DNA of 64,000 nt from Gemmatimonadota bacterium (lineage in GTDB: Bacteria > Gemmatimonadota > Gemmatimonadetes > Gemmatimonadales > GWC2-71-9), in assembly GCA_029863245.1 (NCBI GenBank), contig JAOTVV010000003.1, forward strand, positions 82,591 through 146,590, read 5' to 3'. Below, in pieces: positions 34,278-54,106 of this stretch. Under the pieces are notes generated by a model. It had not been told where the DNA came from. It saw only the letters and a list, made by a program, of their open reading frames with translations, and did no database searches. Numbering within the stretch: the stretch's first letter is position 1; the number at the start of each line of letters is the position of its first letter. The position numbers and the translations under genes are program-made.

Positions 34278-34440
34278 GCGAAGTCTCCGATTGCTCGTGG
34301 AGCAACTCACACATATTGCAGTCGTGGCCATCGGACTTGAGCCCGCACGAGCCGCAGCGGTCCTGATGACCCTTGCGGTTCATCAGGCCGAACACGATCG
34401 CCAGCACAGCGAGTCCGAGGATGCCAAGTGCTTCGTTCAT
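34264..34440 (-). CDS. 58-aa single-TM Cys-rich peptide, NqrM (DUF539)-like maturation factor candidate
   Basis: Not in the ORF track because it is under 60 aa. My translation is MNEALGILGLAVLAIVFGLMNRKGHQDRCGSCGLKSDGHDCNMCELLHEQSETSHGTG. Its ATG sits in an ATGA overlap with the rnfA stop, and its end overlaps the apbE start by 14 nt. Confidence 0.55.
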   Translation of the reverse strand: MNEALGILGLAVLAIVFGLMNRKGHQDRCGSCGLKSDGHDCNMCELLHEQSETSHGTG

Positions 34441-35015
34441 GACGAGCTCAACAGACCGGCGAAGCCCATGAACGCCAGCGATAGGCTCCCCGCGATAATC
34501 AGCACCAGCGCCATTCCCTTGGCGAGGGCCGGGACGTCAGCCATCTCGCTCGATTCGCGAATCGACGCCATCAGCACCAGAGCGAGTGTCAAACCGAGCC
34601 CGCCGCCGACGGCGAAGAACAGCCCTTCAAGGAGGTTGTAGCCTCGATTGGTCTGGAAGATCGCGAGCCCGAGAATGGCGCAGTTCGTGGTGATGAGCGG
34701 CAGGTAGATCCCAAGCTGCCGGAACAGCACGGGGCTCACCTTCTTGATCACCATCTCGACGATCTGTACTAGCGAGGCGATCACCACGATGAACGAGATC
34801 AGCCGAAGGTACGGCGCGTAGGGTAAGATGAAGGTGTTCAGGAACCACGCGCACACCGATGCGATCACGAGCACGAAGATGTCGGCCAGTCCGAGGCGCA
34901 GAGCCGTGGAGACGCGCGCCGACACTCCCATGAACGGACACAGTCCGAGGAAATAGGCGAGGGTGAAGTTGTTCACCACCATCGCGGAAAGCAGGATCCA
35001 GACCAGCTCGCCCAT
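34437..35015 (-). CDS. rnfA: Rnf electron transport complex subunit A
   Basis: ATG 35015, 192 aa. VNNFTLAYFLGLCPFMGVS and LPLITTNCAILG are collinear with RnfA/RsxA. Confidence 0.9.
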   Translation of the reverse strand: MGELVWILLSAMVVNNFTLAYFLGLCPFMGVSARVSTALRLGLADIFVLVIASVCAWFLNTFILPYAPYLRLISFIVVIASLVQIVEMVIKKVSPVLFRQLGIYLPLITTNCAILGLAIFQTNRGYNLLEGLFFAVGGGLGLTLALVLMASIRESSEMADVPALAKGMALVLIIAGSLSLAFMGFAGLLSSS

Positions 35016-35674
35016 CACGCCGCCTCCTCCCGTGCACCCACGCCGTGCGGCCACTCACGCACGCGTGCGCGCTCCACCCGGCGCTTCTCGATCCATCCGA
35101 ACAGGAGCAGCCAGAAGCCGAGGGTGAGAAAGCCACCGGGCGGCAGTATGAAGATGACCCACGGCTCGAACGGGCCGGGAATGACCTTCATACCGAGTAG
35201 CGCGCCGGTGCCGAGGATCTCGCGGATCGACCCCATCATCACCATCGCAATGATGAAGCCGAACCCGGTGCCGAAGGCGTCCAGCAGTGATCGGCCGACG
35301 GGGTTCTTCGAGGCAAAAGCCTCCTGCCGGCCCAGTATCATGCAGTTCACCACGATCAGCGCGACAAAGGCTCCCAGCGCCTTGTGGATGTCGGGGACCA
35401 GTGCCTCGAGCGTCATGTCGGCCACCGTGACGAACGTCGCGATGATCAGGATGTACGTCGATATCCGCACCTCTCCGGGCACCGCCTTCTTCACGATCGA
35501 CACGAGCAGGCTCGATCCGGTGAGCACGAAGAACGTCGCGATTCCCATGACGAGCGAGTTCTCAAGGGTGTTGCTCACTGCCAAGGCCGGGCACAGGCCC
35601 AGCATCTGGATCAAGACCGGGTTCTCGCGCCAGATACCGCGGAAGAAATCCTGTTGCGGCGACGTCTTGCTCAT
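35015..35674 (-). CDS. rnfE: Rnf electron transport complex subunit E
   Basis: ATG 35674, 219 aa. NPVLIQMLGLCPALAVS and ALIVVNCMILGRQEAFA are RnfE/RsxE-like. Confidence 0.9.
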   Translation of the reverse strand: MSKTSPQQDFFRGIWRENPVLIQMLGLCPALAVSNTLENSLVMGIATFFVLTGSSLLVSIVKKAVPGEVRISTYILIIATFVTVADMTLEALVPDIHKALGAFVALIVVNCMILGRQEAFASKNPVGRSLLDAFGTGFGFIIAMVMMGSIREILGTGALLGMKVIPGPFEPWVIFILPPGGFLTLGFWLLLFGWIEKRRVERARVREWPHGVGAREEAA

Positions 35675-36351
35675 TGCGCGACCTCCGCACTCTGGGGACC
35701 CGTCGCGGCAGCCTGATACGACTCGAGCATCGGCCCCATCCGTTGGAGCGCGTTGTTGATGATCTTGATGACCGTGCGGGACGAGATGGTGGCGCCCGTG
35801 ATCATGTCCACTTCGTGCGGGTCTCCCGTGCTTTGACGGGGCTTCACCCCCGTGAGCGGTGTCTGGACACCGTCGAACTGCGACACGAAGTCCACGTTCT
35901 TCTCGATCTTGTCGCCGAGCCCCGGGGTCTCCTTGCTCTCGAGCACCTTCATGCCCAGGAGCGTCTGCGTCGCGTGGTCGTAGCCGAAGATGAGCCGCAC
36001 GACGTCCTGAAACCCAGGCTCGCCCGACGCGATCGCAAACCCGATAGGGGAGCTGTCGGCGTGATACCCGAAGTAGATCTGCTCGAGCTTCTTCGGGTCG
36101 GCATCGGCCGGCAGCTGACGCGTGAGCGTCCCCTGATAGACGTAGAGAGTATCGTAGTGATCGGGTGCTTTGAGCACCTCTTGGATCGCCGCGGCAAGGC
36201 GCTCGGCCCGGTTGCGCTCGATGGTGGGGAGCGTGGCTTGGTAGACGAACACCAGGACGAACCCCGCGAGGGCACCGGCAAGTCCCAGGGTCACCAACAG
36301 GCGCCACGCCGGGACGTCGGGCTTTGGCTGAAACTGCGCGGGGGCGCTCAT
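35671..36351 (-). CDS. rnfG: Rnf electron transport complex subunit G (FMN-binding)
   Basis: ATG 36351, 226 aa. N-terminal TM anchor and the flavinylation motif DMITGATISSRTV. Confidence 0.85.
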   Translation of the reverse strand: MSAPAQFQPKPDVPAWRLLVTLGLAGALAGFVLVFVYQATLPTIERNRAERLAAAIQEVLKAPDHYDTLYVYQGTLTRQLPADADPKKLEQIYFGYHADSSPIGFAIASGEPGFQDVVRLIFGYDHATQTLLGMKVLESKETPGLGDKIEKNVDFVSQFDGVQTPLTGVKPRQSTGDPHEVDMITGATISSRTVIKIINNALQRMGPMLESYQAAATGPQSAEVAQ

Positions 36352-37352
36352 TCCGTCACCTTCACCGCGGCGCGCGTTCCGAACACTCTGGGTTGCGTAG
36401 CGCGGTTGATGAATGGCACCATCGCGTTCATGAGCAGGATGGCGTACATCACCCCTTCGGCGAGCCCGCCCCACAGCCGGATGACCACCACCAGCACCCC
36501 GATACCGACGCCGTAGAGCCAGCACCCGCGGTTGGTGACCGGCGAGGTCACCATGTCGGTGGCCATGTAGACCGCGCCGAGCATGAGGCCGCCCGAGAAC
36601 AGCATGAACAGCGCGCCCGGAAAGGCGGGGTTGAGCCAGTGCGTGAGCGTGGCAAGCGCCGCGACGGTGAGGAAGATGCTGATCGGGATGCGCCAGTTCA
36701 GGTAGTTCCGCCACGCCAGGTACGCACCGCAGAGCAGAATCAGGATGCCTGCCGTCTCGCCCAGCGAACCGCCGGTGGCACCGATCATGAGCTTGCCCAG
36801 TTCCGTGCTCTGCTGCTCGAACTTCATGAGTCCGAGCGGCGTAGCGCTGGTGAGCACGTCCACCTCGCCGGGACTCATGAGGGGCAGCGCCAGATTGTCG
36901 CCCCGGAGCGCCCACCAGTTCTCGCGAATCACGGGCCACGTGGTGAGCGCCACGGGGAACGCCGCCTGCAGGAACGCCCGGCCCAGCAGCGCCGGGTTGA
37001 AGATGTTCTGACCCAACCCGCCAAAGATGAGCTTGCCGAACCCAATGGCGAACGCGCCGCCCACGAAGGCCATCCACATCGGGAGTCCGGCCGGCAGGCA
37101 GAGGCCGAGCAATAGGCCCGTGATCACCGCAGAGCCGTCGAACAGCGTCTCCCGGCTTCCGAACAGCCATTCGGTTGCGAGACACCCCGCGAGGGCCGCC
37201 ACGATGACCAGTACGGCGCTCGGGCCGAAATAGTAGATGGCCGCCACGATCACCGGGATGAGCGAGACGTTCACCGTCCACATGATCCGCGGCGTACTGT
37301 CGCGCTCGGCCAGGTGCGGCCACGCGGTGATGAGCAGGCGTGGCGCCGTCAT
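36348..37352 (-). CDS. rnfD: Rnf electron transport complex subunit D
   Basis: ATG 37352, 334 aa, polytopic. GQNIFNPALLGRAF and the flavinylation-type motif LTSATPLG. Confidence 0.9.
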   Translation of the reverse strand: MTAPRLLITAWPHLAERDSTPRIMWTVNVSLIPVIVAAIYYFGPSAVLVIVAALAGCLATEWLFGSRETLFDGSAVITGLLLGLCLPAGLPMWMAFVGGAFAIGFGKLIFGGLGQNIFNPALLGRAFLQAAFPVALTTWPVIRENWWALRGDNLALPLMSPGEVDVLTSATPLGLMKFEQQSTELGKLMIGATGGSLGETAGILILLCGAYLAWRNYLNWRIPISIFLTVAALATLTHWLNPAFPGALFMLFSGGLMLGAVYMATDMVTSPVTNRGCWLYGVGIGVLVVVIRLWGGLAEGVMYAILLMNAMVPFINRATQPRVFGTRAAVKVTE

Positions 37353-38689
37353 GCAGCCTTGGGCTTGGGTGGCTGCCGCTTGAGCTGGTTCTTCGCCAGT
37401 GCGAACAGCTGAGTGAGCGGGATATTGGACGGACAAGTGTAGCCGCAGCAGCCGCACACCATGCAGTCCATCAGGTGGTTCTCCACCATCTCGTCGTACC
37501 GGTCGTGCATGGCTAGCTGCCCGAGGAGCTGCGGGTTGAGAAACACGGGACACGCGTCGAGGCAGTGCCCGCAGCGGATGCACGGGTACGAGTGCTGGGA
37601 CTTCACCTCGGCGCCGGTGAGCGCGATGACCCCGGTCGTGCCCTTGGTGATCGGCACGTCGAGGCTGGCCTGCGCTGCACCCATCATGGGACCACCGAAC
37701 ACGATCTCGCGCGCCGTCTCGGTGAGGCCGCCGCACGCATCGAACACATCGCGCACCTTGGTGCCGACCGGCACGATCAGGTTTGCAGGCCGACGCACGC
37801 CGGGACCGGTTACCGTCACGATCCGCTCGATGAGCGGCAGGCCCGTCTCGAACACCTCCGCGATGGTTGCCACCGAGGCCACGTTGTGGACGACCACGCC
37901 CACGTGCATCGGCAGTCTGCCCGACGGCACTTCGCGGCCGAGCAGCGCCTTGATGAGCATCTTCTCGGCCCCCTGTGGGTACTTCACCGTGAGGCCGTGA
38001 ATGGTGACGTGTCCTTCCAGGTCGTCGGGGAGCGTCGCCCGCAGGCGTTCGATGGCGTCCGGCTTGTTCTTCTCGATGCCCACCATCACGCGATCCGCCC
38101 CGATCGTCTTCATCATGAGCCGGATGCCGAGATGCACGCGCCCGGGGTATTCCACCATGGTGCGGTGATCGGTCGTGAGGTACGGCTCGCACTCGCACCC
38201 GTTGATGACGATCGTGTCGATGGAGACGTCGTCGGGCGGGACGAGCTTGACGTGGGTGGGGAAGGCGGCACCGCCCAGGCCGACCACGCCGGCTTGCCGG
38301 ACCGCATCCACGAGCTGCTTGCGGTCCAGGCCACGCCAGTCGGGGATGATCCGTTTCCGCGGTACCTGGGCGTCGTATGGGGCCACGGCAATCCGGATCG
38401 CATCCTGGTAGCCGCCTGTCGGGTGCGGCCACAGCTCGATCGCCGTCACGGTCCCGGCCGCCGAGGTGTGGATCGGCGACGAGATGAACCCGTCGGCTTC
38501 GGCCACCTTGTCACCGCGCTCCACGCGGTCACCTATTCGGACAATGGGCACGGCCGGCTTCCCCGTGTGCTGACTGAGCGGCAGCACGATCTCGTCGGGG
38601 AAGGGCAGCCGGCGGACAGGAATCGCAGCCGTGAGCTGTTTCAGCTCCGGCGGGTGCACCCCGTGGCGGAACCGCATTCGCTTCGCCAT
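37349..38689 (-). CDS. rnfC: Rnf electron transport complex subunit C
   Basis: 446 aa. NADH-binding region GLGGAAFPTHVK and two 4Fe-4S motifs, CIRCGHCLDACP and CMVCGCCGYTCP. Confidence 0.9.
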   Translation of the reverse strand: MAKRMRFRHGVHPPELKQLTAAIPVRRLPFPDEIVLPLSQHTGKPAVPIVRIGDRVERGDKVAEADGFISSPIHTSAAGTVTAIELWPHPTGGYQDAIRIAVAPYDAQVPRKRIIPDWRGLDRKQLVDAVRQAGVVGLGGAAFPTHVKLVPPDDVSIDTIVINGCECEPYLTTDHRTMVEYPGRVHLGIRLMMKTIGADRVMVGIEKNKPDAIERLRATLPDDLEGHVTIHGLTVKYPQGAEKMLIKALLGREVPSGRLPMHVGVVVHNVASVATIAEVFETGLPLIERIVTVTGPGVRRPANLIVPVGTKVRDVFDACGGLTETAREIVFGGPMMGAAQASLDVPITKGTTGVIALTGAEVKSQHSYPCIRCGHCLDACPVFLNPQLLGQLAMHDRYDEMVENHLMDCMVCGCCGYTCPSNIPLTQLFALAKNQLKRQPPKPKAA

Positions 38690-38696: not shown

Positions 38697-41600
38697 TCAG
38701 TTGAACGGCTCCGCCCGCTTCATCCACTTCTCGAGGTCCTTCTCTTTCGGATTGAGCGGCGTGCCCGGGTGGATGATCCGCACCGGACAGCGCTCAGCGC
38801 TCGTGACCAGTTCCTTGAAGGTCCCCGCCTTCGGGTCCTTGATGTACGCCTGCTTCTTGTCGTCGTAGACGAACATCTTCTTGTTGACCTTGATGCACTC
38901 TTCGCAGCTCGTGCACCGCGCGGTGTCGATGTACGGCTCGAGTGCGAGACCTTCCTCCTCCTCGACGGCAGGGGCGGCGACTGCCGCTGTGGCAACGGCC
39001 GCGCCACCTCCCCTCGGAGCCGGCGCCACGGCGGGCCCGGTATCGAGGCTCAACCCGCCCACATCCAGCTTGAGCGGCTGGATCGGCATTGCCTGCACCT
39101 CGCTCAGGAGTTCGGCGATGGTACGCTGACCGTTGCCGGCCCGGACCAGGCCCTCGGCGAGCCGGTGGGCCACGAGTTGCGGATACTTCTGCTTCAGGTC
39201 CGCGATTCTGGCCTCGTACTCCGCCTTGATCTGCGCCGCCTGCGCCTCGAACTCCTGCTCCGCCTCCGCCGAGACGTCCACCGCGAGACCGGCCATCTCC
39301 TTGAGCAGCGACCACACGTGGAGCCGGTCCTCGGCCAGCTGCACCATCTCCGATGAGACGGCCACGCGGCCGAGCGTGCGGTCGGGCCGGAGCAGGTAGA
39401 TGAACGGGGTCTTGCCCTCGCGATCCTCCGGCGATGCCGTCAGGAACTCATGGAACGGCATCATGCTGTCCTCATCGAAGTCACCCCTGACGCGCTTGAA
39501 GTGCTTCTTGAATCGCGCCTCGGTCGCCGCCCAGTCGGCCGTCGTGACCGGCAGCTCCATCATCTGCTCCTGGCCGTTCTCGTCCACGTACTTGAGGTCG
39601 TAGCTTGGCCACGTGTCGTCGATCGACGGGTTGCCGTCGAGCGAGAGCCGCTCCGCCATCGTGTAGCCCTCGGCAGGATCGTAGACGAGCACTGGGTACG
39701 CCCGGCTCTCGAGCATGAGCTTCGCCGCGTCGGGCGCCTGATCGTCACCCACCCCATGCTCGGGCGGGCACGGACAGTGCAGCGCCAGCACCGAGGGGTA
39801 GCGCGACTGCAGGCTCTTGAGCACGCCGGCCAACAGGTGCGACGGGTTCGCCTGGGACGCCTGGAGCACGAACACGTTGCGGTGTGCCATGGCGATCAGC
39901 GCCAACTCCTTGCGCGTCTCCTCCTTGCCGTGCTGTGCCGCGCCGTAGGCCGCCATGTCGCTCACCTGACCGGTGAAGCCGCTGGTGCAGGCCTGGCCGC
40001 CCGTGTTCGAGTACACCTGGGTGTCGAGCACCATCACGCGAATCGGTTTCCCCGACGCCAGGAGTCGCGACATGTTCTGGAACCCGATGTCCAGCATGGC
40101 CCCGTCGCCGCCGGTGGCGAAGATGGGCGGACACAGGTCGAACTCCTTGTCGCTGAACTGCCGCCACTCGAACCGGGTGAAGAACGGCTCGTGGACGGCC
40201 GGATCGTATTCCTCGGCCAGCTCCAGCTCAGCACGCCGCACCGCCACGAACCCGTCGGCCATCTTCCGCATGTGCCCTTCGAAGATGCCGATGGCAATCG
40301 AGGGCGCGTCCTGGAACAGGTGGTTCACCCACGGGAAGGGATAGGGGTTGAACGGATAGGTGCTGCCCCATACCGAGGAGCAGCCTGTGGCGTTGGTCAT
40401 CGCCATGACCGACCGGCCCTTGCCCGTCGGCCCTTCGACGTAGCGCCACCTGAGATCGCGCAAATCGTCGAGCATGGTGCGGATCCGCGCCACCGCCTGC
40501 TTCTGTTCGTCGTCGAGCGTGAGGTCGGCCTTCCCTCCCGCCACGTCCACGGCGTTCAGGTCGGCGTCGGCGGCCAGGAGCGTCCTGGCCTTGGCGTCGA
40601 GACCTGCGATCAACTCGTCCAGTTCGGCGATGTGCCGCTTCACCCGCGGCATCATCAGGGCATTCACCGCCGAGAGCACCAGGTGCACGACGGTCTTCTC
40701 GCCGCAGCCCATGCAGGCGCCGTCGCCGCCGGCCATCGACCGGTAGGTCTCCTTCTTCAGCAGGAGCGACGACAGCACGCCGATGCCCTCCTCGATGTCC
40801 GACACGTTGACGTACCGGTCGTTGGTGTCGGGCAAGAGTTCCCAGAGCTTCCAGTCTTTGCGGAGCTTGTCGACGATCTCGTCGGTCTGCTTGACCGTGA
40901 TGAGCGCCTCGTCGGGACACACGTGCACGCAGATATTGCAGCCCTTGCACGCGTCCGGATTGACCGTGATCGAGAGCAGCCCCCCCGTGTTCTTCTCGCG
41001 TCCCTCCGGTAGGTCGAAGAACGCGGTTGTCTTGGCGAGCGGGAAGTCCTCGAGCACGGCATAGACCGGCGCGAACTCCGCGTCGAGCGCCGCACGGCGC
41101 TCAGGGTCGAGCTTCATCTTGTCGACCACCGTCTTGTAGGCCTCCGACAACACGGCGCCAAACGTCGTGAACGGCACGCCCTTCATGATCTTCCGCGACT
41201 CGTTGCCGAGGTGCTTCGTGATCTGGCGCAGGCGGTCGAGCGACCGGCCGTTGGAGACGAACCGGATGGCCGTGTCGAGTACTTCTTCGACCTCGTTCAC
41301 CAGGCCCGGAATGGCAGCGTCGGGGCACTGCACCCAGCACTGCCCGCAGCCGGTGCACTTCTCCGCGATGAACTCCGGTACTTCGAACCGCACGTCCGTC
41401 ATGTCGCGGATCGTGCTCGTAGCCGCCGGAATCGCGCTCAGTGCGGCAAATGGGTCGGCGATACCGTCGTCACCGGTCTTGTACAGGTAGCAGACCTGTT
41501 CCCAGAACCGGCCGGGGTTTCCAATGCCGGCCCGGACCTTTGAGCCGTCGAGCATTGCGGGCATCTGCGGTGGGGGGATCACCACGTCCTGCGACACCCC

Positions 41601-43718
41601 GTACGCCTCAATGTCGACCGGCTCCACCTCGTCGTAGCCGCGACGGATGACGCGGACATTGTCCTCCACCACCCGCTCCCCAAGGTGACCGAACTTCTTC
41701 TGCAGCTGCTTGCGGATCCCCTCGAACAGTTGCTGCTCCTCGAGGCCTTCGCGCTCGGCCAGGCCGGAGACGCGGAAGAAGGCGCCCATGAAGGCCGCGC
41801 CCTGCATCCGGTACCGCAGCTCCGCGTCCGACGCCTCCTCCATCGCGATCTTGAAGGCATCCAGGCTGAAGAGCCGGATCTTCCGGTCCTTGATGGTCTG
41901 CTGTGCCTCGGCGGGCAGGCTGTGCCACAGGTCCTCCGCGCTGCGATCGCTCTGGAGAATGAACACGCCGTCGGGCGCGAGACCGGCCAGCGGGTCGGAG
42001 TTGCGGAACACGTTCGGATCGGGCGAGAGCACCACGTTGACATGCTTCAGCTCGCAGTTGAGCCGGATGGGCTCGTGCGCCAGCGTGGTGTAGAACGTGG
42101 TCGGCTGGCCCTTCTTTTCCGAGCCGTACTTCGGGTTGGCCTTGATGTACATCCCCATCAGCTCGGAGGCTGTCATCGCCAGATTCTTGCCCATCGTGAT
42201 CGCGCCCCAGCCGCCGACGGAGTGAATGCGGATGGAGGTCGCGCCCTTGGGCAGGAGGTTCACGTTTTCCGTGGGGAGGAGCGACAGATTGGCCACCTCG
42301 GGATACGCTGCAAGCAACTCGTCCTGCCAAATCTGGAGCTTGGGCAGCTTGGTGCCCACCCGCACGAAGTCGATGCCGAGATAGTACTGGCGCTGCTTCT
42401 TCCCGCCGTCGAGCATGTTGTCCACGGCGGCGATGAGATCGGCCGGCTGGAGGTCGCGGCTACCGAGGCCGAAGGTCCCGGAGTAGAATGCCGGTGCGTC
42501 GCCCGGGCCGTACGCGGCGATGCCAGCGAAGGGCAGCTTCCCGTTACCCGCCACGCCGTTCTCCATCGCCTTGTTCACGGCGGCACGAATCTCCCGCAGG
42601 ATCGGCTGGTCCACTGCGAGCGGCTGGTCCACGCGCTCGAGCACCGCCACGGCCTTCTTGCCCTTCAGCAGATGCGTGATGAGGTCGGCCGGGAATGGCC
42701 GGAACATCGTGACGTTGAGCACGCCGAATTTGACCCCGCGCGTCTCGCGCAGGTAGTCGCACACCGCCTCGGCATTGGGGATGAGCGAGCCCTGGCCGGC
42801 GATCACGTATTCCGCATCGTCCAGCCTATACCCCATGGTGCGGGCATACTGGCGGCCCGTGAGCACGGCTAGCTCCGCCATCGCCTGGTCGGTGAACTCC
42901 GCGACGTGGTCGAAGTAGAACGGACGCTGCGCTGCCACGCCCTGCTGGTAGCTGTCCTGGTTCTGGACGACGCCCAGCATGGCGGGGTAGTCGAGGTCGA
43001 ACATCTCCGGAATGCGTCGCCGCTTCTCGCCGAACACCCACCGCTGCGCCGGCGTGGGTGAGTCGATCAGATCGGCTGGGTCGCCGAGGAACTCCTTCAC
43101 TAACTCCCGCTCTGGAAGCGTGATCGACTCGATCACATGGGTGGTGAGGAACCCGTCCTGCGCCAAAATCCCCGGGTTGAGCGACAGTTCGGCCACGCGG
43201 TGCGCGATCAGGTTGAGATCGGCCGACTCCTGCGCGTCCTTGGCGAACAGCTGGAAGAAGCCCGTGTCGTCCACCGCGTGATAGTCGTCGTGGCCGGCGT
43301 GCACGTTGAGCGCGTGCTTGGTCATGGCGCGCGCGCCGATGTTGAGCACGTAGGTGAGCCGCTTGCCCACGGCGGCATACAGCGACTCGTGCATGTACGC
43401 GATGCCCTGCCCACTCGAGAAGTTGGCAGCACGCAGCCCGACCATGCTCATGCCGGCGGTCACCGCCGCGGCGGCGTGTTCGCCCTCGGGCTCGAAGAAC
43501 AGCAGCCGACGGCCATGCACGTTGGTCTGACCTGCGGCGACGGCCGCAGCCCAGCCCTCGCCCATCTGCGTGGACGGCGTAATCGGATACGCGCCGGCTG
43601 CCTCGCTTCCCGCGGTCTCCATGTCCACGACGGCTTGCGTGCCGTCGACGGCCATGGGTATGCCAGGGTACTTCGGCTGCTCGGGAGGTTTGGGATTCGA
43701 TTTGCGCTTGAACATCAT
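38697..43718 (-). CDS. pyruvate:ferredoxin (flavodoxin) oxidoreductase-like 2-oxoacid oxidoreductase, single-chain, 1673 aa, with C-terminal ferredoxin-like domain
   Basis: ATG 43718 in an ATGA overlap with the rnfB stop. It has a PFOR domain I (YPITPSTQMGEGW), a gamma-like domain, two 4Fe-4S motifs (CTGCGQCWVQCPDAAI and CKGCNICVHVCPDEAL), the TPP motif GGDGAMLDIGF...NTGGQ, and an extra C-terminal CTSCEECIKV...CPVRIIHPG module. Confidence 0.9.
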   Translation of the reverse strand: MMFKRKSNPKPPEQPKYPGIPMAVDGTQAVVDMETAGSEAAGAYPITPSTQMGEGWAAAVAAGQTNVHGRRLLFFEPEGEHAAAAVTAGMSMVGLRAANFSSGQGIAYMHESLYAAVGKRLTYVLNIGARAMTKHALNVHAGHDDYHAVDDTGFFQLFAKDAQESADLNLIAHRVAELSLNPGILAQDGFLTTHVIESITLPERELVKEFLGDPADLIDSPTPAQRWVFGEKRRRIPEMFDLDYPAMLGVVQNQDSYQQGVAAQRPFYFDHVAEFTDQAMAELAVLTGRQYARTMGYRLDDAEYVIAGQGSLIPNAEAVCDYLRETRGVKFGVLNVTMFRPFPADLITHLLKGKKAVAVLERVDQPLAVDQPILREIRAAVNKAMENGVAGNGKLPFAGIAAYGPGDAPAFYSGTFGLGSRDLQPADLIAAVDNMLDGGKKQRQYYLGIDFVRVGTKLPKLQIWQDELLAAYPEVANLSLLPTENVNLLPKGATSIRIHSVGGWGAITMGKNLAMTASELMGMYIKANPKYGSEKKGQPTTFYTTLAHEPIRLNCELKHVNVVLSPDPNVFRNSDPLAGLAPDGVFILQSDRSAEDLWHSLPAEAQQTIKDRKIRLFSLDAFKIAMEEASDAELRYRMQGAAFMGAFFRVSGLAEREGLEEQQLFEGIRKQLQKKFGHLGERVVEDNVRVIRRGYDEVEPVDIEAYGVSQDVVIPPPQMPAMLDGSKVRAGIGNPGRFWEQVCYLYKTGDDGIADPFAALSAIPAATSTIRDMTDVRFEVPEFIAEKCTGCGQCWVQCPDAAIPGLVNEVEEVLDTAIRFVSNGRSLDRLRQITKHLGNESRKIMKGVPFTTFGAVLSEAYKTVVDKMKLDPERRAALDAEFAPVYAVLEDFPLAKTTAFFDLPEGREKNTGGLLSITVNPDACKGCNICVHVCPDEALITVKQTDEIVDKLRKDWKLWELLPDTNDRYVNVSDIEEGIGVLSSLLLKKETYRSMAGGDGACMGCGEKTVVHLVLSAVNALMMPRVKRHIAELDELIAGLDAKARTLLAADADLNAVDVAGGKADLTLDDEQKQAVARIRTMLDDLRDLRWRYVEGPTGKGRSVMAMTNATGCSSVWGSTYPFNPYPFPWVNHLFQDAPSIAIGIFEGHMRKMADGFVAVRRAELELAEEYDPAVHEPFFTRFEWRQFSDKEFDLCPPIFATGGDGAMLDIGFQNMSRLLASGKPIRVMVLDTQVYSNTGGQACTSGFTGQVSDMAAYGAAQHGKEETRKELALIAMAHRNVFVLQASQANPSHLLAGVLKSLQSRYPSVLALHCPCPPEHGVGDDQAPDAAKLMLESRAYPVLVYDPAEGYTMAERLSLDGNPSIDDTWPSYDLKYVDENGQEQMMELPVTTADWAATEARFKKHFKRVRGDFDEDSMMPFHEFLTASPEDREGKTPFIYLLRPDRTLGRVAVSSEMVQLAEDRLHVWSLLKEMAGLAVDVSAEAEQEFEAQAAQIKAEYEARIADLKQKYPQLVAHRLAEGLVRAGNGQRTIAELLSEVQAMPIQPLKLDVGGLSLDTGPAVAPAPRGGGAAVATAAVAAPAVEEEEGLALEPYIDTARCTSCEECIKVNKKMFVYDDKKQAYIKDPKAGTFKELVTSAERCPVRIIHPGTPLNPKEKDLEKWMKRAEPFN

Positions 43719-44566
43719 GCAACCGCCTTCTCGAGAGGCTGTGCGGACGCTTGGAACTGCGCGCCCTCGACCCAGACGATGGCGCCGGTCGGGCATCGCG
43801 CGATGGCCGACACGTCCGCCAGATCGTTCTTGCTGTAATCCACCACCGCCAACCCGTCCCTGATCTCGATGAGCCCGGGCGCGGCGTCCGCCACGCACCG
43901 CTCGCAGGCGGTGCAGGCCACCCGGCACAGGGCTTCGATCTCGTCACCTTCCAACGCGCTCTTGCACTGCACAATCAGTTTCTGCTCGATCGGCATGAGC
44001 ACGAACAGATCCTTCGGGCACGCGTCCACGCAGTCTCCGCACGCGGTGCACTTGTCCGGGATGACTACGGGAATGCCATACTGGTTCATGTAGATCGCGT
44101 CGAAGTCGCACGCGACCTCGCAATCGTCGAGACCGAGGCACCCCCAGCGACAGCCCTTGCCGCCGCCGGCCACGGCTGCTGCGGCCTTGCACGTGTCGAG
44201 CCCCAGATAGTCGGCCTCCTGCACCGCCACGTTGCTCCCGCCGGCGCAGAGGAGCCGCGCCACCCGCTTGTTCGCTTCGCCCGCTTCCACCCCGAGGAAC
44301 TGCGCCATCGAGAGCACGTCGTCAGCACCCATCACCGTGCAGGTAGCGGGCTGGATGCGGCCCAGCACCACACCCTCGGCGAACGCGCGGCACCCCGCCT
44401 CGCCGCAGGCGCCGCAGTTGGCGCCCGGCAGCATGTCGGTCACCGCGTCGATCCGCGGATCCTCCCACACCTTGAACTTCCAGTGCGTGAGCGCGATCGC
44501 CGCGGCGAACGTGAGGCCCACGCCACCCAGGATGGCGACCGAGAGCAGAATGGTGGTGATGCTCAT
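43715..44566 (-). CDS. rnfB: Rnf electron transport complex subunit B
   Basis: ATG 44566, 283 aa. N-terminal TM helix, the CGACGEAGC Fe-S region, and ferredoxin motifs CTACGDCVDACP and CTACERC. Confidence 0.85.
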   Translation of the reverse strand: MSITTILLSVAILGGVGLTFAAAIALTHWKFKVWEDPRIDAVTDMLPGANCGACGEAGCRAFAEGVVLGRIQPATCTVMGADDVLSMAQFLGVEAGEANKRVARLLCAGGSNVAVQEADYLGLDTCKAAAAVAGGGKGCRWGCLGLDDCEVACDFDAIYMNQYGIPVVIPDKCTACGDCVDACPKDLFVLMPIEQKLIVQCKSALEGDEIEALCRVACTACERCVADAAPGLIEIRDGLAVVDYSKNDLADVSAIARCPTGAIVWVEGAQFQASAQPLEKAVA

Positions 44567-44576: not shown

Positions 44577-45596
44577 CTAGATGTCCGACAGGTTGGCCTG
44601 CGACAGGAGCCACGCAGCGAGCTTGTCGACCGGATCGGCGGGTGCGGCTGGCGTGACCGGAGTCGCCGACGCGTCCGTCCCCACCGCCGGCCTCGTTCCA
44701 ACCGTGATGTCCGCCAGTGACCGCAGTTGCCGGATCTCCTCAGCCTGCTGGGACCCGCTCCGGCCGCCAACAGACATCTTCGGCTCGGTCGCGGGCAGAT
44801 GCTCCACCGTCAAGCGACCGGCCAGGTGCAGCCCGCCCTTGGGATCGTGAACGAACCGTGCGGCCGACTCGGGGACCAGGGCGCCGATGCCCGGACCGTC
44901 GTGCGTTGCCAGCCGGTCCAAGCCCGTGCCATCGTGGGTTTGGATGACGAAGGTGCCCGGCGTGATGAGCCGCACCAGCGGGGCGGGGGAGCAGGCCCCA
45001 CGCACGACCAGCACGATCTTCTGCGATCCATCCAGGAAGTCCGTGAGCATTTCGGCGCGCAGATCGGCACCGTCGACCGCCACCACCAGTGGGGGCGCGA
45101 GCCGGCGTTCTCCTTTGCTCCATTTCTGGAAGGGGAACGATCCCAGTGAGCGCGCGTGCTCGTTGCCGCGATAGCTCCCCGACCGCGTCAACTCGAAGAT
45201 CCGCACAGCCCCGAAGGCGCGTCCAATCTCCTCGAGTGCCTTCGCAACAGCGGTCCGGAGGTCGCCGCCCGGATTCACTTTCACCAGGAAGAGATCATGA
45301 TTGCGCTGCGACAGTTCGTTCATCGTGTCGCGCGCTTTCTCGATCGTCTCGACGGTGAGCGTGTCGAGCTTCAGCGAGCCTCCGAACAGCTTGGCCAGCC
45401 GGTCGGTGTCGAAGCGATCGGCCGCGAACGGTCCCAGCTCGGCAGCCACGCGGTTCACGCCGCCGTTCTGGGACTGCCGATGCTCGGCGAGGAACGTCTG
45501 CACCTGCTCGACGGTCGTGCCCAGCGCCGACCGGAACGCATCCCGCTGCCCAGCCAGCGCCGTCAGAGCGAGCTCCACTCGGTCGTCAGAGGGCAT
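44577..45596 (-). CDS. hypothetical protein (339 aa), no family recognised
   Basis: ATG 45596 overlaps the korB end by 11 nt. Its stop is 10 nt before the rnfB start, with AGGAG in between. Predicted soluble with a helical N-terminus. No metal or cofactor motif was seen. Confidence 0.6.
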   Translation of the reverse strand: MPSDDRVELALTALAGQRDAFRSALGTTVEQVQTFLAEHRQSQNGGVNRVAAELGPFAADRFDTDRLAKLFGGSLKLDTLTVETIEKARDTMNELSQRNHDLFLVKVNPGGDLRTAVAKALEEIGRAFGAVRIFELTRSGSYRGNEHARSLGSFPFQKWSKGERRLAPPLVVAVDGADLRAEMLTDFLDGSQKIVLVVRGACSPAPLVRLITPGTFVIQTHDGTGLDRLATHDGPGIGALVPESAARFVHDPKGGLHLAGRLTVEHLPATEPKMSVGGRSGSQQAEEIRQLRSLADITVGTRPAVGTDASATPVTPAAPADPVDKLAAWLLSQANLSDI

Positions 45597-46539
45597 AAGT
45601 GTCAAGCTCCGCATTGAGGATGGCGATCTTCTCGTCCGCCGTCTTGGGGGATACCCTCCGGACCTCCTCGTACACGGGCAGATCGTCATTCCGGTAAAAC
45701 ACGCCAAGCCGGATCTTGTCATCGAGCTGAGCCAGCCGAAATGCGTTCACGAGGTCCGCGGGATCGTGATAGACCTCGTTCTTGTAGATCTGCTTCAGCG
45801 CCGGCACGTCGACACCGTCGGGGTGGACCAAGAGCTCGATCGTGTTGGAATCGCGCATGGCGTTGAGGTACAGCTGGTCCGTGTACTGGGGACACCGCTG
45901 CAGGATGCGTACGAACGAGAACCCCCGATGCTCGTAGGCCGCCTTCAGCACGGCGTAGATGTGATCGGGCACCCAGTCGCCGGTCTGCGCCACGAACGAG
46001 GCGTTCTCCACACCGAGGGTCGTCGCGATCGGGTTCATCCCTTCGAGGAACGCGCCTTTGGGCTGCGTGTTGCTCCGCACGCCCTTTGGGCTCGTGGGCG
46101 ACGTCTGGTTCTTGGTGAGCCCGTAGACGCCGTTGTCGAGCATGAGGGCCACCATGTTGGGGTTGTAGCGCGTGGTGTGGATCCAGTGTGCCGCCCCGAT
46201 GGAGCAGCAGTCTCCGTCGCCCATGACCACGAACACCTGCAGCTCGGGCCGCCGCAGCTTGATACCGGTCGCCAGCGGTAACGCCCGGCCGTGGAGGCCG
46301 TGGAAGCCGTACGAGTTGATGTAGTGGGGAAACCGGCTCGAGCAGCCGATGCCCGAGACGAACACCGTCTCTTCGGGCGGGAGCTGCAGGTCGGCCAGGA
46401 AGCGTTGCACGGCGGCGAGCACGGCGTGGTCACCGCATCCCGAGCACCAGCGCGCGGTCGCCGCCTGGTAGTCGTCCATCTCCCAAGAGCGGTCGTCGGC
46501 TATCGCGCTGCCAAGCAGTGAGCATCCGAGTTGAATCAT
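45586..46539 (-). CDS. korB: 2-oxoacid:ferredoxin oxidoreductase beta subunit (KorB-like, TPP-binding)
   Basis: 317 aa. WCSGCGDHAVL and the TPP motif VMGDGDCCSIGAAH...DNGVYGLTKNQ. Confidence 0.9.
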   Translation of the reverse strand: MIQLGCSLLGSAIADDRSWEMDDYQAATARWCSGCGDHAVLAAVQRFLADLQLPPEETVFVSGIGCSSRFPHYINSYGFHGLHGRALPLATGIKLRRPELQVFVVMGDGDCCSIGAAHWIHTTRYNPNMVALMLDNGVYGLTKNQTSPTSPKGVRSNTQPKGAFLEGMNPIATTLGVENASFVAQTGDWVPDHIYAVLKAAYEHRGFSFVRILQRCPQYTDQLYLNAMRDSNTIELLVHPDGVDVPALKQIYKNEVYHDPADLVNAFRLAQLDDKIRLGVFYRNDDLPVYEEVRRVSPKTADEKIAILNAELDTYAL

Positions 46540-46541: not shown

Positions 46542-48458
46542 TCAGGCTCCCTTGGGCATGTGTGCCCGGATCGCCTCGTGGATCTGGCCCGGGCGCAGCG
46601 GATGGCCGGGCACCCGGGTCCAGCAGTCCACATCCACCAGTGTCGTGGCGCGCAGCAGCCAGGCGAGCTGGCCGCGGCGGCGGTTCTCATCGGTGATGTA
46701 GGGCGCGTTGGGGTCGTCGGAGTAGTTGACCTCCACCGTCATCACTTTCGTGAACCGGTTGAAGATCTCCTTGAGCCCCGGCTCGAGCGGGGAGAGGAAT
46801 CGGAGGTGGAGCGACGAGACCGCGAGCCCTTCTTCGCGTGCCCGGTCCACCGCTTCCTCGATGGCGCCAATCGTGCTGCCCCACCCGACGACCAGGAGAT
46901 CGCCGTGATCGACCCCATAAACTTTGGGCGGTCTCAGTGATTGCTGGAACACGGCCATCTTGCGCGCCCGCATCTCACAGCCGCGCTCGTGCACGTCGGG
47001 GCTGTAGGCGATCTTGCTGTCTTCGTCGTGTGACAGCCCCGTCGCGCGGAACATCCCGTTCTGACGACCCGGAATGATGCGGGCCGACAGGCCGGTCTTG
47101 GGATCCCAGTCATATGGTTTCTGGCCATCGGGCACAGGGCTCAGGTCGAGCGGCGCCGCGATCCAGTCGCGGGTCACGTTGGGCCGCGGGAATGGCTGGA
47201 CACCGGTGGCTAGGTTCGCGTCCGAAAGGACCATCACCACGCAGCGGAACGCCTCGGCGATGCGGCGGGCCGTGATCATGCAGAGGAAGCACTCCTCCAT
47301 GGTCGCCGGCGCCATCACCACCTTGGGTGCGTCGCCGGGCTGGCCCCAGATGGCCGCGAGTAGGTCCGACTGCTCGATCTTGGTGGGGAGTCCCGTGCTC
47401 GGTCCGCCGCGCTGCACGTCCACCAGCACGAGCGGCGTCTCGGTCATGACGGCGAGCCCGATGAACTCGGTTTTGAGCGCCAGACCCGGCCCGGACGTGA
47501 TGGTGAAGGCCACCTTGCCGGCGAACGAGGAGCCGATCGCGACGCCCACGGCGGCGATCTCGTCTTCGGCCTGGTGCACGATGCCACCATAATTCTCGAA
47601 GATCTCGCTCAAGTGGTGCGACGCCGACGTGGCCGGTGTGATGGGGTACATGGCGCACAACTCCATGCCCGACGCCACCGCACCCATGGCGATCGCCTGG
47701 TTCCCGTTCATCACCACCATGGGCACCGGCGGGGGCTCAATCGGCACGTCGACCGTGAAGTCGAGGTTCGCCTCGGCCCACGCATGCCCGAGATCGAGCA
47801 GGGCCAGGTTGGCGTCGATCACCGCTTGGGACTTCTTCCGGAATTCGACCTCGATCTGCTCCCGAATGAGATCCAGGTTGCGGGAGTAGATGTTCGCCAG
47901 CATCCCGAGGACGAACATGTTCTTCCCCTTGCGGGGATTGTCGACCACCGTGAGGCACTGCTCTTCCATCGGCACCTTGATGAAGCGGTAGCGCTTGCCG
48001 CTCATCTCCTCCATGGCCGCCGCCCACTCCTTGCGGATATCCTCGTCGTCGTGGGCTTCCCACATGCTCTCGATGAGCACGGCACAGTCGTCGTTGAGCG
48101 CGTTTGCGCGGTGGCGGTGGAGCAGCACCTGCTCGTTGAACGCCACCACGAGGTGGGCGGCATCGCCCCAGTTCGTCACCGGCTTGGTGCCGATGCGTAC
48201 CCGGTTCCCGCTGGTGCTGGGCGGGGTGCGCGGTGGGGGCTGGATCTCGGCCGGGATGATCTCCACGGTCCAGACGCCGTTCCCCATCTTCGCCGACACG
48301 CGGCCAAAGGTCTGGGCGCACTTCTGCGCGCCCTCGCCGGGGTCGGAGACCACCTCGACGGTGTGCTCGGCGACTTTGATGATGCTCTTGTTCTGGGGGG
48401 ACGGCGTCTTGGCCTTCTTCTTCTTCGCGGCGGGTGCCGCGGCGGATGAACTGGCCAT
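46542..48458 (-). CDS. korA: 2-oxoacid:ferredoxin oxidoreductase alpha subunit (KorA-like, fused gamma-alpha)
   Basis: ATG 48458 (MASSSAAAPAAKKKKAK...), about 638 aa. The N-terminal POR-gamma-like part is followed by YPITPATSASHHL of the alpha domain. Confidence 0.9.
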   Translation of the reverse strand: MASSSAAAPAAKKKKAKTPSPQNKSIIKVAEHTVEVVSDPGEGAQKCAQTFGRVSAKMGNGVWTVEIIPAEIQPPPRTPPSTSGNRVRIGTKPVTNWGDAAHLVVAFNEQVLLHRHRANALNDDCAVLIESMWEAHDDEDIRKEWAAAMEEMSGKRYRFIKVPMEEQCLTVVDNPRKGKNMFVLGMLANIYSRNLDLIREQIEVEFRKKSQAVIDANLALLDLGHAWAEANLDFTVDVPIEPPPVPMVVMNGNQAIAMGAVASGMELCAMYPITPATSASHHLSEIFENYGGIVHQAEDEIAAVGVAIGSSFAGKVAFTITSGPGLALKTEFIGLAVMTETPLVLVDVQRGGPSTGLPTKIEQSDLLAAIWGQPGDAPKVVMAPATMEECFLCMITARRIAEAFRCVVMVLSDANLATGVQPFPRPNVTRDWIAAPLDLSPVPDGQKPYDWDPKTGLSARIIPGRQNGMFRATGLSHDEDSKIAYSPDVHERGCEMRARKMAVFQQSLRPPKVYGVDHGDLLVVGWGSTIGAIEEAVDRAREEGLAVSSLHLRFLSPLEPGLKEIFNRFTKVMTVEVNYSDDPNAPYITDENRRRGQLAWLLRATTLVDVDCWTRVPGHPLRPGQIHEAIRAHMPKGA

Positions 48459-48838: not shown

Positions 48839-48926
48839 CGGACAGGGTGGGATTCGAACCCACGGAACCCTTGCGAGGTTCACACGCTCTCCAGGCGTGT
48901 GCCTTCAGCCGCTCGGCCACCTGTCC
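48839..48926 (-). tRNA. tRNA-Ser (anticodon GGA)
   Basis: The minus-strand sequence GGACAGGTGGCCGAGCGGCTGAAGGCACACGCCTGGAGAGCGTGTGAACCTCGCAAGGGTTCCGTGGGTTCGAATCCCACCCTGTCCG folds as follows. Acceptor GGACAGG/CCTGTCC. Anticodon stem CACGC/GCGTG with loop CTGGAGA. Long variable arm. T-loop GGTTCGAATCC. No encoded CCA. Confidence 0.9.
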
Positions 48927-52471: not shown

Positions 52472-52527
52472 TGCGAGTCGACGAGACACGGAGACTACAT
52501 AACGACCTCACAAGGGTTAAGACACTT

Positions 52528-54078: not shown

Positions 54079-54106
54079 TTGGGGGACGTCGTTGCCTGAT
54101 GGTTAC

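Follow-up and report, generated by a model that had tools for sequence, protein, structure and literature searches.

Operon Context and Gene Structure

An unusually long single-chain pyruvate:ferredoxin oxidoreductase (PFOR), encoded inside an operon for the ion-translocating Rnf complex, is located on a 64,000-nucleotide stretch of DNA from a Gemmatimonadota bacterium (contig JAOTVV010000003.1, assembly GCA_029863245.1). The whole stretch, with a G+C content of about 66%, is referred to here as the window. An open frame on its minus strand spans 38697..43928, and the ATG-ATG at 43718 marks the start of a gene (38697..43718) that encodes 1673 amino acids (aa) plus the stop codon. This start is overlapped by the stop codon of rnfB in an ATGA ('...gttgcATGAtgttc'), the 3′ end of rnfB reading '...GTT GCA TGA'. 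At the other end, the PFOR stop codon TGA occupies 38699-38697, and 7 nucleotides (nt) further on the ATG of rnfC lies at 38689. Both junctions were read in the sequence as a first-pass annotation had described them; its observation that the gene splits rnfB from rnfC while remaining coupled to both extends to related loci, where the arrangement is strictly conserved.

The PFOR gene belongs to a run of genes from 48458 to 33291, all of which lie on the minus strand (as do all operon and domain coordinates given below) and overlap or are separated by gaps of no more than about 10 nt, except for about 105 nt between rnfA and apbE. The first operon gene, korA (46542..48458; 638 aa, start ATG at 48458), encodes the gamma and alpha portions of a two-subunit 2-oxoacid:acceptor oxidoreductase as a fusion, with POR, POR_N, and PFOR_II domains and a TIGR03710 (OAFO_sf) score of 509.8 over a cutoff of 482.75; it is conserved upstream of the cluster in related loci. 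The thiamine pyrophosphate (TPP)-binding beta subunit is encoded by korB (45586..46539; 317 aa; Pfam TPP_enzyme_C and PFO_beta_C), which scores 243.6 with the NCBIfam model PorB_KorB, slightly below the cutoff of 261.9. According to Pfam and NCBIfam, KorAB possesses a single cluster and no ferredoxin domain or subunit. A 339-aa gene termed X (44577..45596) follows, for which no Pfam or NCBIfam match was obtained and which is devoid of TPP and cluster ligands.

The Rnf genes begin with rnfB (43715..44566; 283 aa; Pfam FeS and Fer4), encoding the multicluster subunit that faces ferredoxin. RnfB scores 72 with TIGR01944 (cutoff 68.7) and is similar over its full length to RnfB of Acetobacterium woodii (9ERI_B, 1e-54) and Clostridium tetanomorphum (7ZC6_B, 6e-46), which assigns it by homology to the ferredoxin-accepting multicluster type. 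Downstream of the PFOR gene lie rnfC (37349..38689; 446 aa), the NADH/FMN-binding subunit (RnfC_N, Complex1_51K, SLBB, and Fer4; TIGR01945 523 over 246), rnfD (36348..37352; NQR2_RnfD_RnfE), rnfG (35671..36351; FMN_bind), rnfE (35015..35674; Rnf-Nqr), and rnfA (34437..35015; Rnf-Nqr). The last four (34437..37352) overlap by 1-4 nt. The final gene, apbE (33291..34331; Pfam ApbE, E 8e-69), encodes an FAD:protein FMN transferase, an enzyme needed for flavinylation of RnfG and RnfD. All six Rnf subunits are thus represented by Pfam and NCBIfam matches, and their genes are contiguous apart from the intervening PFOR. A tRNA-Ser gene (anticodon GGA; 48839..48926, minus strand) precedes korA across an intergenic region of about 380 nt and likely marks the upstream operon boundary. 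A scan of the operon for consensus promoters and terminators returned nothing beyond shuffled expectation.

At 1673 aa, the protein exceeds the PFORs of Moorella thermoacetica (6CIN, 1171 aa) and Desulfovibrio africanus (1B0P, 1231 aa) by 440-500 aa. Its third-codon-position G+C is 0.88 across the whole frame, as in the real genes of the window. A database entry of 100% identity is named 'MAG: 2-oxoacid:acceptor oxidoreductase family protein [Gemmatimonadota bacterium]', where MAG denotes a metagenome-assembled genome, and the identical protein occurs on two contigs. Furthermore, 119 orthologues of 1600-1730 aa, drawn from NCBI, JGI, ENA, and Logan assemblies, are collinear with it over their full length. 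The long PFOR is a real, widely conserved gene product and not a fusion artifact. Whether the extra length is an already recognized subfamily feature had been raised in the first-pass annotation; the long form is common, yet it is hidden under generic names and carries no known role.

Catalytic Core and Cluster Ligands

The Pfam matches follow the canonical PFOR order, with POR_N at aa 36-214, PFOR_II at 302-384, POR at 502-696 (E 5e-31), Fer4 at 779-800 and 917-939, and TPP_enzyme_C at 1198-1310. Domains I, II, III, V, and VI are present in a single chain collinear with the nearest solved relatives, 6CIN (E 2e-90) and 1B0P. Length, domain order, and the single-chain nature of these relatives all agree with the initial description of an oversized PFOR at 38697-43718, and the motifs on which that description relied (YPITPSTQ, a gamma-like domain, two CxxCxxCxxxCP motifs, and GDG...NTGGQ) were each located by position. 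Domains I-II (aa 23-395; 42534..43652), which align with 6CIN residues 5-360, include YPITPSTQ at aa 44-51 and Arg130. The gamma-like domain III (aa 495-700; 41619..42236), identified by the POR match, corresponds to the coenzyme A (CoA)-binding domain of known PFORs. Ferredoxin domain V (aa 788-935; 40914..41357) is split by an insertion, its Fer4 matches lying about 130 aa apart; its cluster motifs at aa 788-799 (C788/791/794/798-P) and aa 924-935 (C924/927/930/934-P) contribute eight Cys, all invariant. Residue alignment to 6CIN and 1B0P places the TPP/Mg site (39993..40112) between GGDG (aa 1203-1206) and SNTGGQ (aa 1237-1242), while the proximal cluster ligands C1002, C1005, C1113, and C1317 align with the CxGCGE, ATGCSS, and PC motifs of 6CIN.

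All 12 Cys for three canonical [4Fe-4S] clusters are therefore retained, and these residues, YPITP (44-48), R130, and the TPP motifs are invariant in 16 orthologues. The catalytic motifs were found in 119 of the 120 closest homologues. Conservation is highest in the catalytic domains, where 146 of the 373 columns in domains I-II are invariant among the 119 full-length orthologues, which implies selection on catalysis. The equivalog hidden Markov model (HMM) for nifJ-type PFOR, TIGR02176, scores 414.3 bits in three separate stretches, below its threshold of 911.35. Judged by its sequence, the window protein is a member of the PFOR family outside the characterized nifJ equivalog clade. It is most likely a catalytically competent 2-oxoacid:ferredoxin oxidoreductase (OFOR) for which pyruvate is the most likely substrate.

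Insertions and the C-Terminal Helical Region

The additional length is distributed along the chain. Relative to 6CIN, there is an excess of 45 aa at the junction of domains II and III (aa 395-474), 81 aa in an insertion between the domain V cluster motifs (insert B, aa 806-909), 83 aa in an insertion between the proximal CxxC pair and the third Cys (insert C, aa 1016-1105), and 259 aa in a C-terminal extension after about aa 1414, together with a shortfall of 42 aa near aa 1183-1196. The extra mass had originally been described as including a coiled Ala/Glu-rich linker, a spacer, and a terminal module. All three are present, but only about 260 aa of the excess is C-terminal; alignments to 6CIN and 1B0P reveal two internal insertions and the junction expansion, and the view that all extra length is C-terminal was rejected.

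Structural predictions for these regions come from an AlphaFold2 (AF2) monomer model of aa 741-1673, built from a 25-sequence alignment and of moderate reliability (mean predicted local distance difference test (pLDDT) 68; predicted template modeling score (pTM) 0.57). Insert B (40992..41303), which lies opposite 6CIN residues 704-726, is predicted to form a five-helix bundle (model residues 70-149). Insert C (40404..40673), opposite 6CIN residues 823-829, is predicted to be a long helical hairpin between C1002/C1005 and C1113, with helices at model residues 267-308 and 330-354 and pLDDT values mostly of 60-95, one block being lower. The C-terminal helical region (aa 1414-1543; 39090..39479) gave no Pfam match and is modeled with helices at model residues 716-735, 744-787, and 794-802; its Ala/Glu-rich segment is a single predicted helix of 44 residues (aa 1484-1527). 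A Foldseek search of the 933-aa model against the PDB retrieved only PFOR chains and OFOR beta subunits, with no solved structure displaying insert B or C. The inserts, the helical C-terminal region, and the 339-aa product of gene X are covered by no Pfam or NCBIfam model. Both inserts are kept in the catalytically dead paralogues described below, and we propose that these inserts may make up a docking scaffold together with the C-terminal helices and the 339-aa pseudo-beta product of gene X.

A Tethered Single-Cluster Ferredoxin Domain

The helical region is followed by an Ala/Pro/Gly/Glu linker (aa 1544-1594; 38937..39089) that ends in an EEEE acidic patch. Residues 1544-1601 (model residues 804-861) are predicted to be disordered, with pLDDT below 50 and mostly 23-32. 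This is the least conserved region of the protein: across the 119 full-length orthologues its majority-residue frequency is 0.44, and 0 of its 51 columns are invariant. In a family-wide set of 237 proteins, linker length varies from 0 to 107 aa around a median of 46 aa; the composition (A 28%, E 13%, P 13%, V 9%, G 7.5%) recurs, while the sequence itself is unconserved. The 15 residues ahead of the following domain always bear a net negative charge (median −6).

The terminal module comprises a domain at aa 1595-1654 and a C-terminal helix at aa 1655-1673 (38700..38936). Four candidate ligands, C1602, C1605, C1608, and C1644 followed by P1645, form a CxxCxxC...CP pattern. Fer4_13 scores 28.2 bits against a Pfam cutoff of 24.5, with the Fer4_13/Fer4_15 match at aa 1596-1650, and a phmmer search matched the C-terminus to D. 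africanus ferredoxin I (1DAX, E 1.5e-5). An AF2 model of the last 95 residues (63-sequence alignment) reached a pLDDT of 88 and a pTM of 0.76. Its top Foldseek match is the same ferredoxin (1FXR_A; target-normalized template modeling score 0.85, root-mean-square deviation 0.8 Å over 58 columns, 31% identity), followed by mono-cluster ferredoxins of Bacillus thermoproteolyticus, Pyrococcus furiosus, Thermotoga maritima, and D. gigas. Among about 280 sequences checked, no intact homologue lacks any of the four Cys; a strict form of the pattern missed only IHPG variants and truncated or frameshifted entries. The ligand set is also invariant in alignments of proteins only 44-60% identical in this region.

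In the 119 orthologues, the domain (majority-residue frequency 0.84, 18 of 60 columns invariant) and the final helix (0.85, 3 of 19 invariant) are conserved to a degree comparable with the catalytic domains (0.80-0.87). The family score, the predicted fold, the Cys conservation, and the disordered linker together support the identification of the terminal module as a single-cluster [4Fe-4S] ferredoxin domain tethered to the PFOR, as had been suggested from the Cys pattern, and both the alignment of homologues and the structure prediction proposed at that stage favor it. The further suggestion that the enzyme may carry its own electron acceptor is consistent with the same sequence and model data. 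A conserved cofactor domain on a freely varying Ala/Pro-rich leash is, by analogy, the pattern of a swinging-arm carrier. Free ferredoxins, including the classical partners of PFOR and Rnf, are usually acidic; the tail domain is near-neutral to basic, with an isoelectric point of 9.0 in the window protein and a family median of 8.2. With an acidic patch placed before a basic domain, the electrostatics of docking may be unusual.

Conservation of the Operon across Genomes

The 120 best matches to the long PFOR, at 67-85% identity, consist of 119 proteins of 1645-1723 aa and one truncated entry of 1494 aa, all from MAGs labeled Gemmatimonadota, Rokubacteria, Planctomycetota, or 'Deltaproteobacteria'. 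The same 11-gene order was found on contigs of a Rokubacteria MAG, a 'Deltaproteobacteria' MAG, and a Gemmatimonadota genome. Synteny was quantified by tblastn of the window proteins against the best 80 species loci (all MAGs, mostly Gemmatimonadota), counting only loci with enough flanking sequence. The gene directly downstream of the long PFOR is rnfC in 70/70 loci and the gene directly upstream is rnfB in 49/49, and a complete rnfCDGEA set is present in 43/43. Gene X occurs in 47 of 48 loci and korB in 41 of 42, the sole exception in each case being a scaffold join of 100 N, and apbE occupies the same position in most loci that extend that far. The order korA-korB-X-rnfB-PFOR-rnfCDGEA-apbE is invariant, and the linkage to Rnf is obligate in these data. 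A broader scan with an alignment of the tail, using one genome per GTDB species, identified the module in at least 526 species.

Apparent departures from synteny at loci L003, L016, L018, and L068 (CP070815, CP070823, CP070722, and CP070670) were rejected as biology, since they coincide with points where scaffolds were joined within binned 'chromosomes'. At these points, runs of exactly 100 N, for example at L003:18363-18462 and L016:5297-5396, generate truncations such as a 58-aa rnfE and make upstream genes seem absent. Taxonomic labels call for similar care. A contig from a MAG labeled Phycisphaerales (L006, JBFGEG010000144.1) encodes PFOR, RnfC, RnfD, and RnfG proteins that share 85-95% identity with their window counterparts. 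All other close relatives are Gemmatimonadota; this contig is probably misbinned, and the phylum labels of some other matches (Armatimonadota, Planctomycetota) may need the same caution. In one Gemmatimonadota locus (L003:1-4915, CP070815), a nitrous oxide reductase cluster encoding a nos propeller/cupredoxin protein, NosD, and an ABC transporter lies directly upstream of the korAB-rnf-PFOR genes, which hints at a respiratory, denitrifying host.

A Wider Family with Degenerate PFOR Paralogues

A search of 50%-identity cluster representatives with aa 1400-1673 retrieved 1318 clusters at a threshold of E ≤ 1e-3, of which 293 reached E ≤ 1e-30. The module of helical region plus tail ends at the C-terminus in nearly all matches listed. 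It is carried by PFORs of about 1560-1685 aa, by proteins of about 1150-1460 aa, and, most numerously, by proteins of about 800-900 aa. The last group includes proteins of about 850 aa that are called 'ferredoxin' in a Cyclobacteriaceae (Bacteroidota) MAG, for which Fer4_13 is the sole Pfam match; they align with PFOR aa 1145-1673 at 30% identity and are devoid of GGDG and SNTGGQ.

Gene X appears to be related to these proteins. A profile of 47 gene X orthologues matched the Bacteroidota family of about 850 aa in hhalign with a probability of 97% (E 1.2e-10), while the match to long-PFOR aa 1148-1367 was weak (E 4.6e-4, probability 33%) and direct BLASTP against the family of about 850 aa marginal (E 0.003). 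From these profile comparisons, the gene X product is assigned as a degenerate remnant of PFOR domain VI, a pseudo-beta protein homologous to the middle of the tail-bearing proteins of about 850 aa.

In Bacteroidota, the gene order is korA-korB-[850-aa tail protein]-rnfB-[1229-1257-aa PFOR-like]-rnfC-rnfD-rnfG-rnfE. The 1257-aa protein, which shares 28% identity with the window PFOR across aa 51-503 and 736-1525, no longer has YPITP, GGDG, SNTGGQ, the proximal-cluster Cys, or any of the gamma domain. Both domain V cluster motifs (one lacking the final Pro), inserts B and C, and the long C-terminal helix are retained. A further locus, L086, encodes a 1387-aa degenerate PFOR paralogue with a tail before rnfB and a 1542-aa paralogue after it, the latter having lost its catalytic motifs and kept two cluster motifs together with inserts B and C. 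Full alignment of the proteins that follow rnfB in L004 and L086 confirmed that YPITP, the TPP motifs, and the proximal-cluster Cys are gone. Two PFOR-derived genes flank rnfB, with the tail on the one before it, at L004:3757-11065, L005:8001-15109, L086:9001-18806, and L089:9001-17186. The paralogues downstream of rnfB in Bacteroidota and L086 look like PFOR pseudoenzymes, 'dead' status being defined by motif loss in pairwise alignments.

Other lineages vary the same theme. A Candidatus Riflebacteria MAG (L087:4398-9095, P0126) encodes a 1565-aa protein before rnfB with two tandem tails at its C-terminus, and a further lineage pairs an 894-aa tail-bearing protein before rnfB with a 1539-aa protein after it. 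The architecture of the window recurs at L088:7323-12365, with a 336-aa first protein and a 1680-aa tail-bearing second protein (P0145). Catalytic decay has also occurred within the fused form, since P0145 retains YPITP and GGDG and has lost SNTGGQ and the TGCSS Cys. A motif count across 25 diverse tail-bearing proteins of at least 1100 aa found all catalytic motifs kept in only 5.

These loci conform to a general template, korAB - slot 1 (PFOR-derived) - rnfB - slot 2 (PFOR or PFOR-like) - rnfCDGEA, in which gene X and the long PFOR of the window occupy slots 1 and 2. Rokubacteria, a 'Deltaproteobacteria' MAG, Bacteroidota, and Riflebacteria are among the sources in which this template was found. 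All operons examined carry the ferredoxin tail on a single slot: ahead of rnfB if the first gene encodes 837-1565 aa, and behind rnfB if it encodes only 336-339 aa. Because the tail switches host between the genes that flank rnfB, their products and RnfB are argued to share one assembly. Since the dead paralogues retain the electron-transfer parts, these parts, not catalysis, constitute the conserved core of the family, and the emphasis moves from a PFOR with an extra domain to an electron-transfer module, derived from PFOR, within a special Rnf operon.

Relation to Known Systems

The window protein shares with characterized single-chain PFORs (1B0P, 6CIN, NifJ/YdbK, TIGR02176) the domain order I-II-III-IV-V-VI, the substrate and TPP residues, and the 12 Cys. 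It differs from them in being 440-500 aa longer, with helical inserts of about 81 and 83 aa and an extension of about 260 aa that bears a fourth cluster domain. It differs also in that its type is always encoded inside an rnf operon and in its equivalog score (414 versus 911). The tail resembles D. africanus ferredoxin I (1FXR/1DAX) and mono-cluster Fer4_13 ferredoxins in ligand pattern, fold, and its 31% identity, and D. africanus ferredoxin I itself accepts electrons from a PFOR. Unlike that protein, the tail is tethered, near-neutral to basic, and preceded by an acidic patch, and it ends in an additional conserved helix.

Fusion of a PFOR core at its C-terminus to a module that takes its electrons is known from the pyruvate:NADP+ oxidoreductases (PNOs) of Euglena and Cryptosporidium, and the window protein is likewise fused at its C-terminus to a redox partner. 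The PNO partner is a flavoprotein similar to NADPH-cytochrome-P450 reductase, whereas that of the window protein is a flexibly linked ferredoxin with one cluster; in the window system, the membrane-bound Rnf would be responsible for reducing NAD+. A PNO-like flavoprotein fusion was rejected, the whole protein having no Pfam match to flavodoxin, FAD_binding, or NAD_binding families. A second parallel is offered by the swinging lipoyl domains of the E2 component of 2-oxoacid dehydrogenases, which are likewise small cofactor domains on Ala/Pro-rich, variable, low-complexity linkers and act in systems for the same step (2-oxoacid, CoA, and NAD+). Unlike lipoyl domains, the tail would carry an Fe-S cluster in place of lipoate; this is a functional analogy without homology, and the mobility of the tail is so far a prediction.

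The neighboring genes also have recognizable counterparts. KorA and KorB of the window resemble KorAB-type OFORs from Sulfolobus (StOFOR, 5B46) and Magnetococcus (the 2-oxoglutarate:ferredoxin oxidoreductase 6N2N) in their gamma-alpha fusion and beta subunit, single cluster, and absence of a delta subunit; unlike those enzymes, they are fixed in an operon with Rnf and tail-bearing PFOR-like proteins. As in the Rnf complexes of A. woodii (9ERI) and C. tetanomorphum (7ZC6), all six subunits plus ApbE and a long multicluster RnfB are encoded. An rnfB-first order (rnfBCDGEA) has been reported for Bacteroidetes and Chlorobi (PMC3534657), and the window operon is rnfB-first as in that type. It differs in that rnfB is flanked by two PFOR-derived genes, with korAB ahead of them.

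No described Rnf operon with its own 2-oxoacid oxidoreductases or a tethered ferredoxin was found in the full-text literature, nor any publication on the long PFOR or its operon, although coverage of subscription journals was poor and a prior description is possible. Genome papers on Rokubacteria and Gemmatimonadota mention Rnf in passing or not at all. Database names such as '2-oxoacid:acceptor oxidoreductase family protein', 'ferredoxin', and 'hypothetical protein' hide the system. The PFOR, the mono-cluster ferredoxin, KorAB, and an Rnf with rnfB-first order are known parts. New are the clade of long PFORs that contain inserts B and C, the tethered ferredoxin, the obligate placement of two PFOR-derived genes and korAB inside an rnf operon, and the dead PFOR paralogues.

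Proposed Electron Path and Alternatives

PFOR, KorAB, ferredoxin, and Rnf are all textbook components, usually pictured as exchanging electrons by way of freely diffusing ferredoxin. For the present operon, we favor a different route, at a probability of roughly 55%: the long PFOR clade would be a dedicated partner of Rnf, with the tethered ferredoxin as a swinging arm that links PFOR and KorAB to RnfB. Electrons would leave TPP through the three canonical [4Fe-4S] clusters of PFOR and then reach a fourth cluster in the ferredoxin domain, held on its disordered Ala/Pro/Glu linker of about 50 residues. The domain would swing, ferrying single electrons from the distal cluster of PFOR to the poly-ferredoxin subunit RnfB; a leash of this length might reach from tens of Å to more than 100 Å. 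The arm would probably also visit the single cluster of the co-encoded KorAB, because KorAB has no ferredoxin subunit of its own. Rnf would then reduce NAD+ and pump ions. The operon would thereby constitute an energy-conserving 2-oxoacid:NAD+ oxidoreductase system that needs no soluble ferredoxin and could run backwards. In lineages with dead paralogues, KorAB would be the only OFOR in the operon with intact catalytic domains, and the PFOR-derived proteins would provide scaffold and wire only. We infer cluster occupancy, mobility of the arm, its contacts with RnfB and KorAB, the substrate, and the direction of electron flow.

Several points weigh against this proposal. Genes may share an operon without their products forming a physical complex. 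With the PFOR equivalog HMM scoring far below its cutoff, the identity of the substrate is also uncertain. The tail domain is not acidic, unlike classical ferredoxins, and its docking may be different or permanent; the near-invariant C-terminal helix could pin it as a static fourth cluster. The large model is a monomer of only moderate quality (pLDDT 68, pTM 0.57). Finally, every member found comes from MAGs, with no cultured host among the named matches, cluster members, or best 80 genome loci.

A stronger version of the swinging-arm proposal, which we advance only tentatively, envisages the 11-gene module korA-korB-X-rnfB-Y-rnfCDGEA-apbE as encoding a membrane supercomplex. This would be a hard-wired, ion-translocating 2-oxoacid:NAD+ oxidoreductase in which the PFOR-derived proteins are true Rnf subunits and the ferredoxin arm replaces the soluble pool. 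The PFOR-derived proteins would be catalytically active in Gemmatimonadota and Rokubacteria, and pseudoenzymes in Bacteroidota, Riflebacteria, and other lineages.

The same architecture might also operate in reverse, an alternative that does not exclude the proposed arrangement and that we regard as possible but clearly less probable than the swinging-arm route to NAD+. Rnf, driven by an ion gradient and NADH, would reduce the tethered ferredoxin for carboxylation, with PFOR as a pyruvate synthase and KorAB as a 2-oxoglutarate synthase, enabling acetate or CO2 assimilation in otherwise respiring organisms. The Rnf and OFOR reactions are reversible (PMC3534657), and the operon pairs Rnf with exactly the two types of carboxylating enzyme used in the reductive tricarboxylic acid (TCA) cycle. 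A private, tethered low-potential carrier would be expected to curb electron loss to O2, and the placement of one related locus beside a nos (N2O reductase) cluster and of another beside a hemerythrin gene hints at respiratory hosts. Nothing in the sequence sets the direction, however; no citrate lyase or other reductive-TCA marker lies within the window, and lineages with dead PFORs keep only KorAB as a catalyst, for which 2-oxoglutarate oxidation fits equally well.

A static arrangement appears unlikely. Here the C-terminal helix would hold the tail permanently against the PFOR core or against inserts B and C, and the fourth cluster would extend the wire to an exit site for a soluble acceptor or RnfB. 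Strong conservation of the last 19 residues, including the invariant R1668, A1669, and F1672, would suit a docked domain, as would the lack of the acidity seen in free ferredoxins and the availability of inserts B and C as conserved surfaces with no assigned role. A disordered linker of about 50 residues that varies from 0 to 107 aa with free sequence is hard to square with a fixed domain. The tail moreover sits on either of two proteins depending on lineage, and one lineage carries two tails in tandem.

We consider it improbable that the window protein is mainly a noncatalytic scaffold or conduit for KorAB and Rnf, with an active site that is vestigial or devoted to another 2-oxoacid. The low TIGR02176 score (414 against 911), the catalytic degeneracy of the majority of diverse tail-bearing relatives, and the loss of SNTGGQ in some proteins of the same architecture, such as P0145, are compatible with such a role. 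Against it, the window clade keeps all TPP, substrate (YPITP, Arg130, Asn1238), and cluster residues, the motifs persist in 119/120 homologues, and the catalytic domains are the most conserved parts.

It is very unlikely that the extension protects against oxygen or has a regulatory function instead of carrying electrons. The model for such a role is the C-terminal extension of D. africanus PFOR (domain VII), which shields the proximal cluster, and the hosts are presumably oxygen-exposed soil and sediment bacteria. Homology to domain VII was rejected: alignments to 1B0P end at about residue 1104-1125 of 1231, leaving domain VII unmatched, and the extension consists of helices, linker, and ferredoxin. 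A complete, universal four-Cys site in a ferredoxin I fold, separated from the core by a long disordered linker, likewise argues against protection. That the long frame is an artifact, a PFOR gene fused to a downstream ferredoxin gene by frameshift or misassembly, can be set aside: the protein is identical on two contigs, the frame is kept in 119 collinear orthologues from separate assemblies and in 80 species-level genomes, and the third-position G+C is 0.88 throughout, which also answers the concern about a frameshift fusion voiced in the first-pass annotation.

The operon suggests a wiring of 2-oxoacid oxidation to Rnf that dispenses with a free ferredoxin pool: the carrier is covalently tethered, and the oxidoreductase genes belong to the Rnf operon itself. 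The module is abundant, as judged from the 526 or more species-level genomes and the 1318 clusters at 50% identity, and its hosts belong mostly to phyla represented only by MAGs (Gemmatimonadota, Rokubacteria, some Planctomycetota and Bacteroidota). If the swinging-arm proposal holds, the system would be an energy-conserving replacement for the pyruvate and 2-oxoglutarate dehydrogenase complexes or, alternatively, a means of NADH-driven reductive carboxylation. The natural fusion would make the docking of ferredoxin to RnfB, a long-standing question, directly testable and would offer synthetic biology a natural blueprint for insulated low-potential electron wiring, and the dead PFOR paralogues would represent a new example of enzyme-to-scaffold evolution. 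Should the module indeed form a supercomplex, oxygen-exposed bacteria would be running low-potential ferredoxin chemistry in an insulated circuit, through an unrecognized class of respiratory or anaplerotic complex that includes the first PFOR pseudoenzymes.

Other Features of the Window

Two further features lie outside the operon. A cobalamin riboswitch (Rfam RF00174, 72 bits; 19073..19256, plus strand) is located upstream of a periplasmic binding protein gene (19351..20220; Peripla_BP_2), which probably belongs to a B12 or corrinoid uptake system. On the other side of the operon, a SusC-like TonB-dependent receptor (49397..52471) is followed by a SusD-family protein (52471..54078) and, beyond it, by three large FG-GAP/ASPIC-UnbV repeat proteins (54199..57597, 58184..61591, and 62397..63989, minus strand). 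The region 49397..63989 is a polysaccharide-utilization-like locus in a Gemmatimonadota genome.

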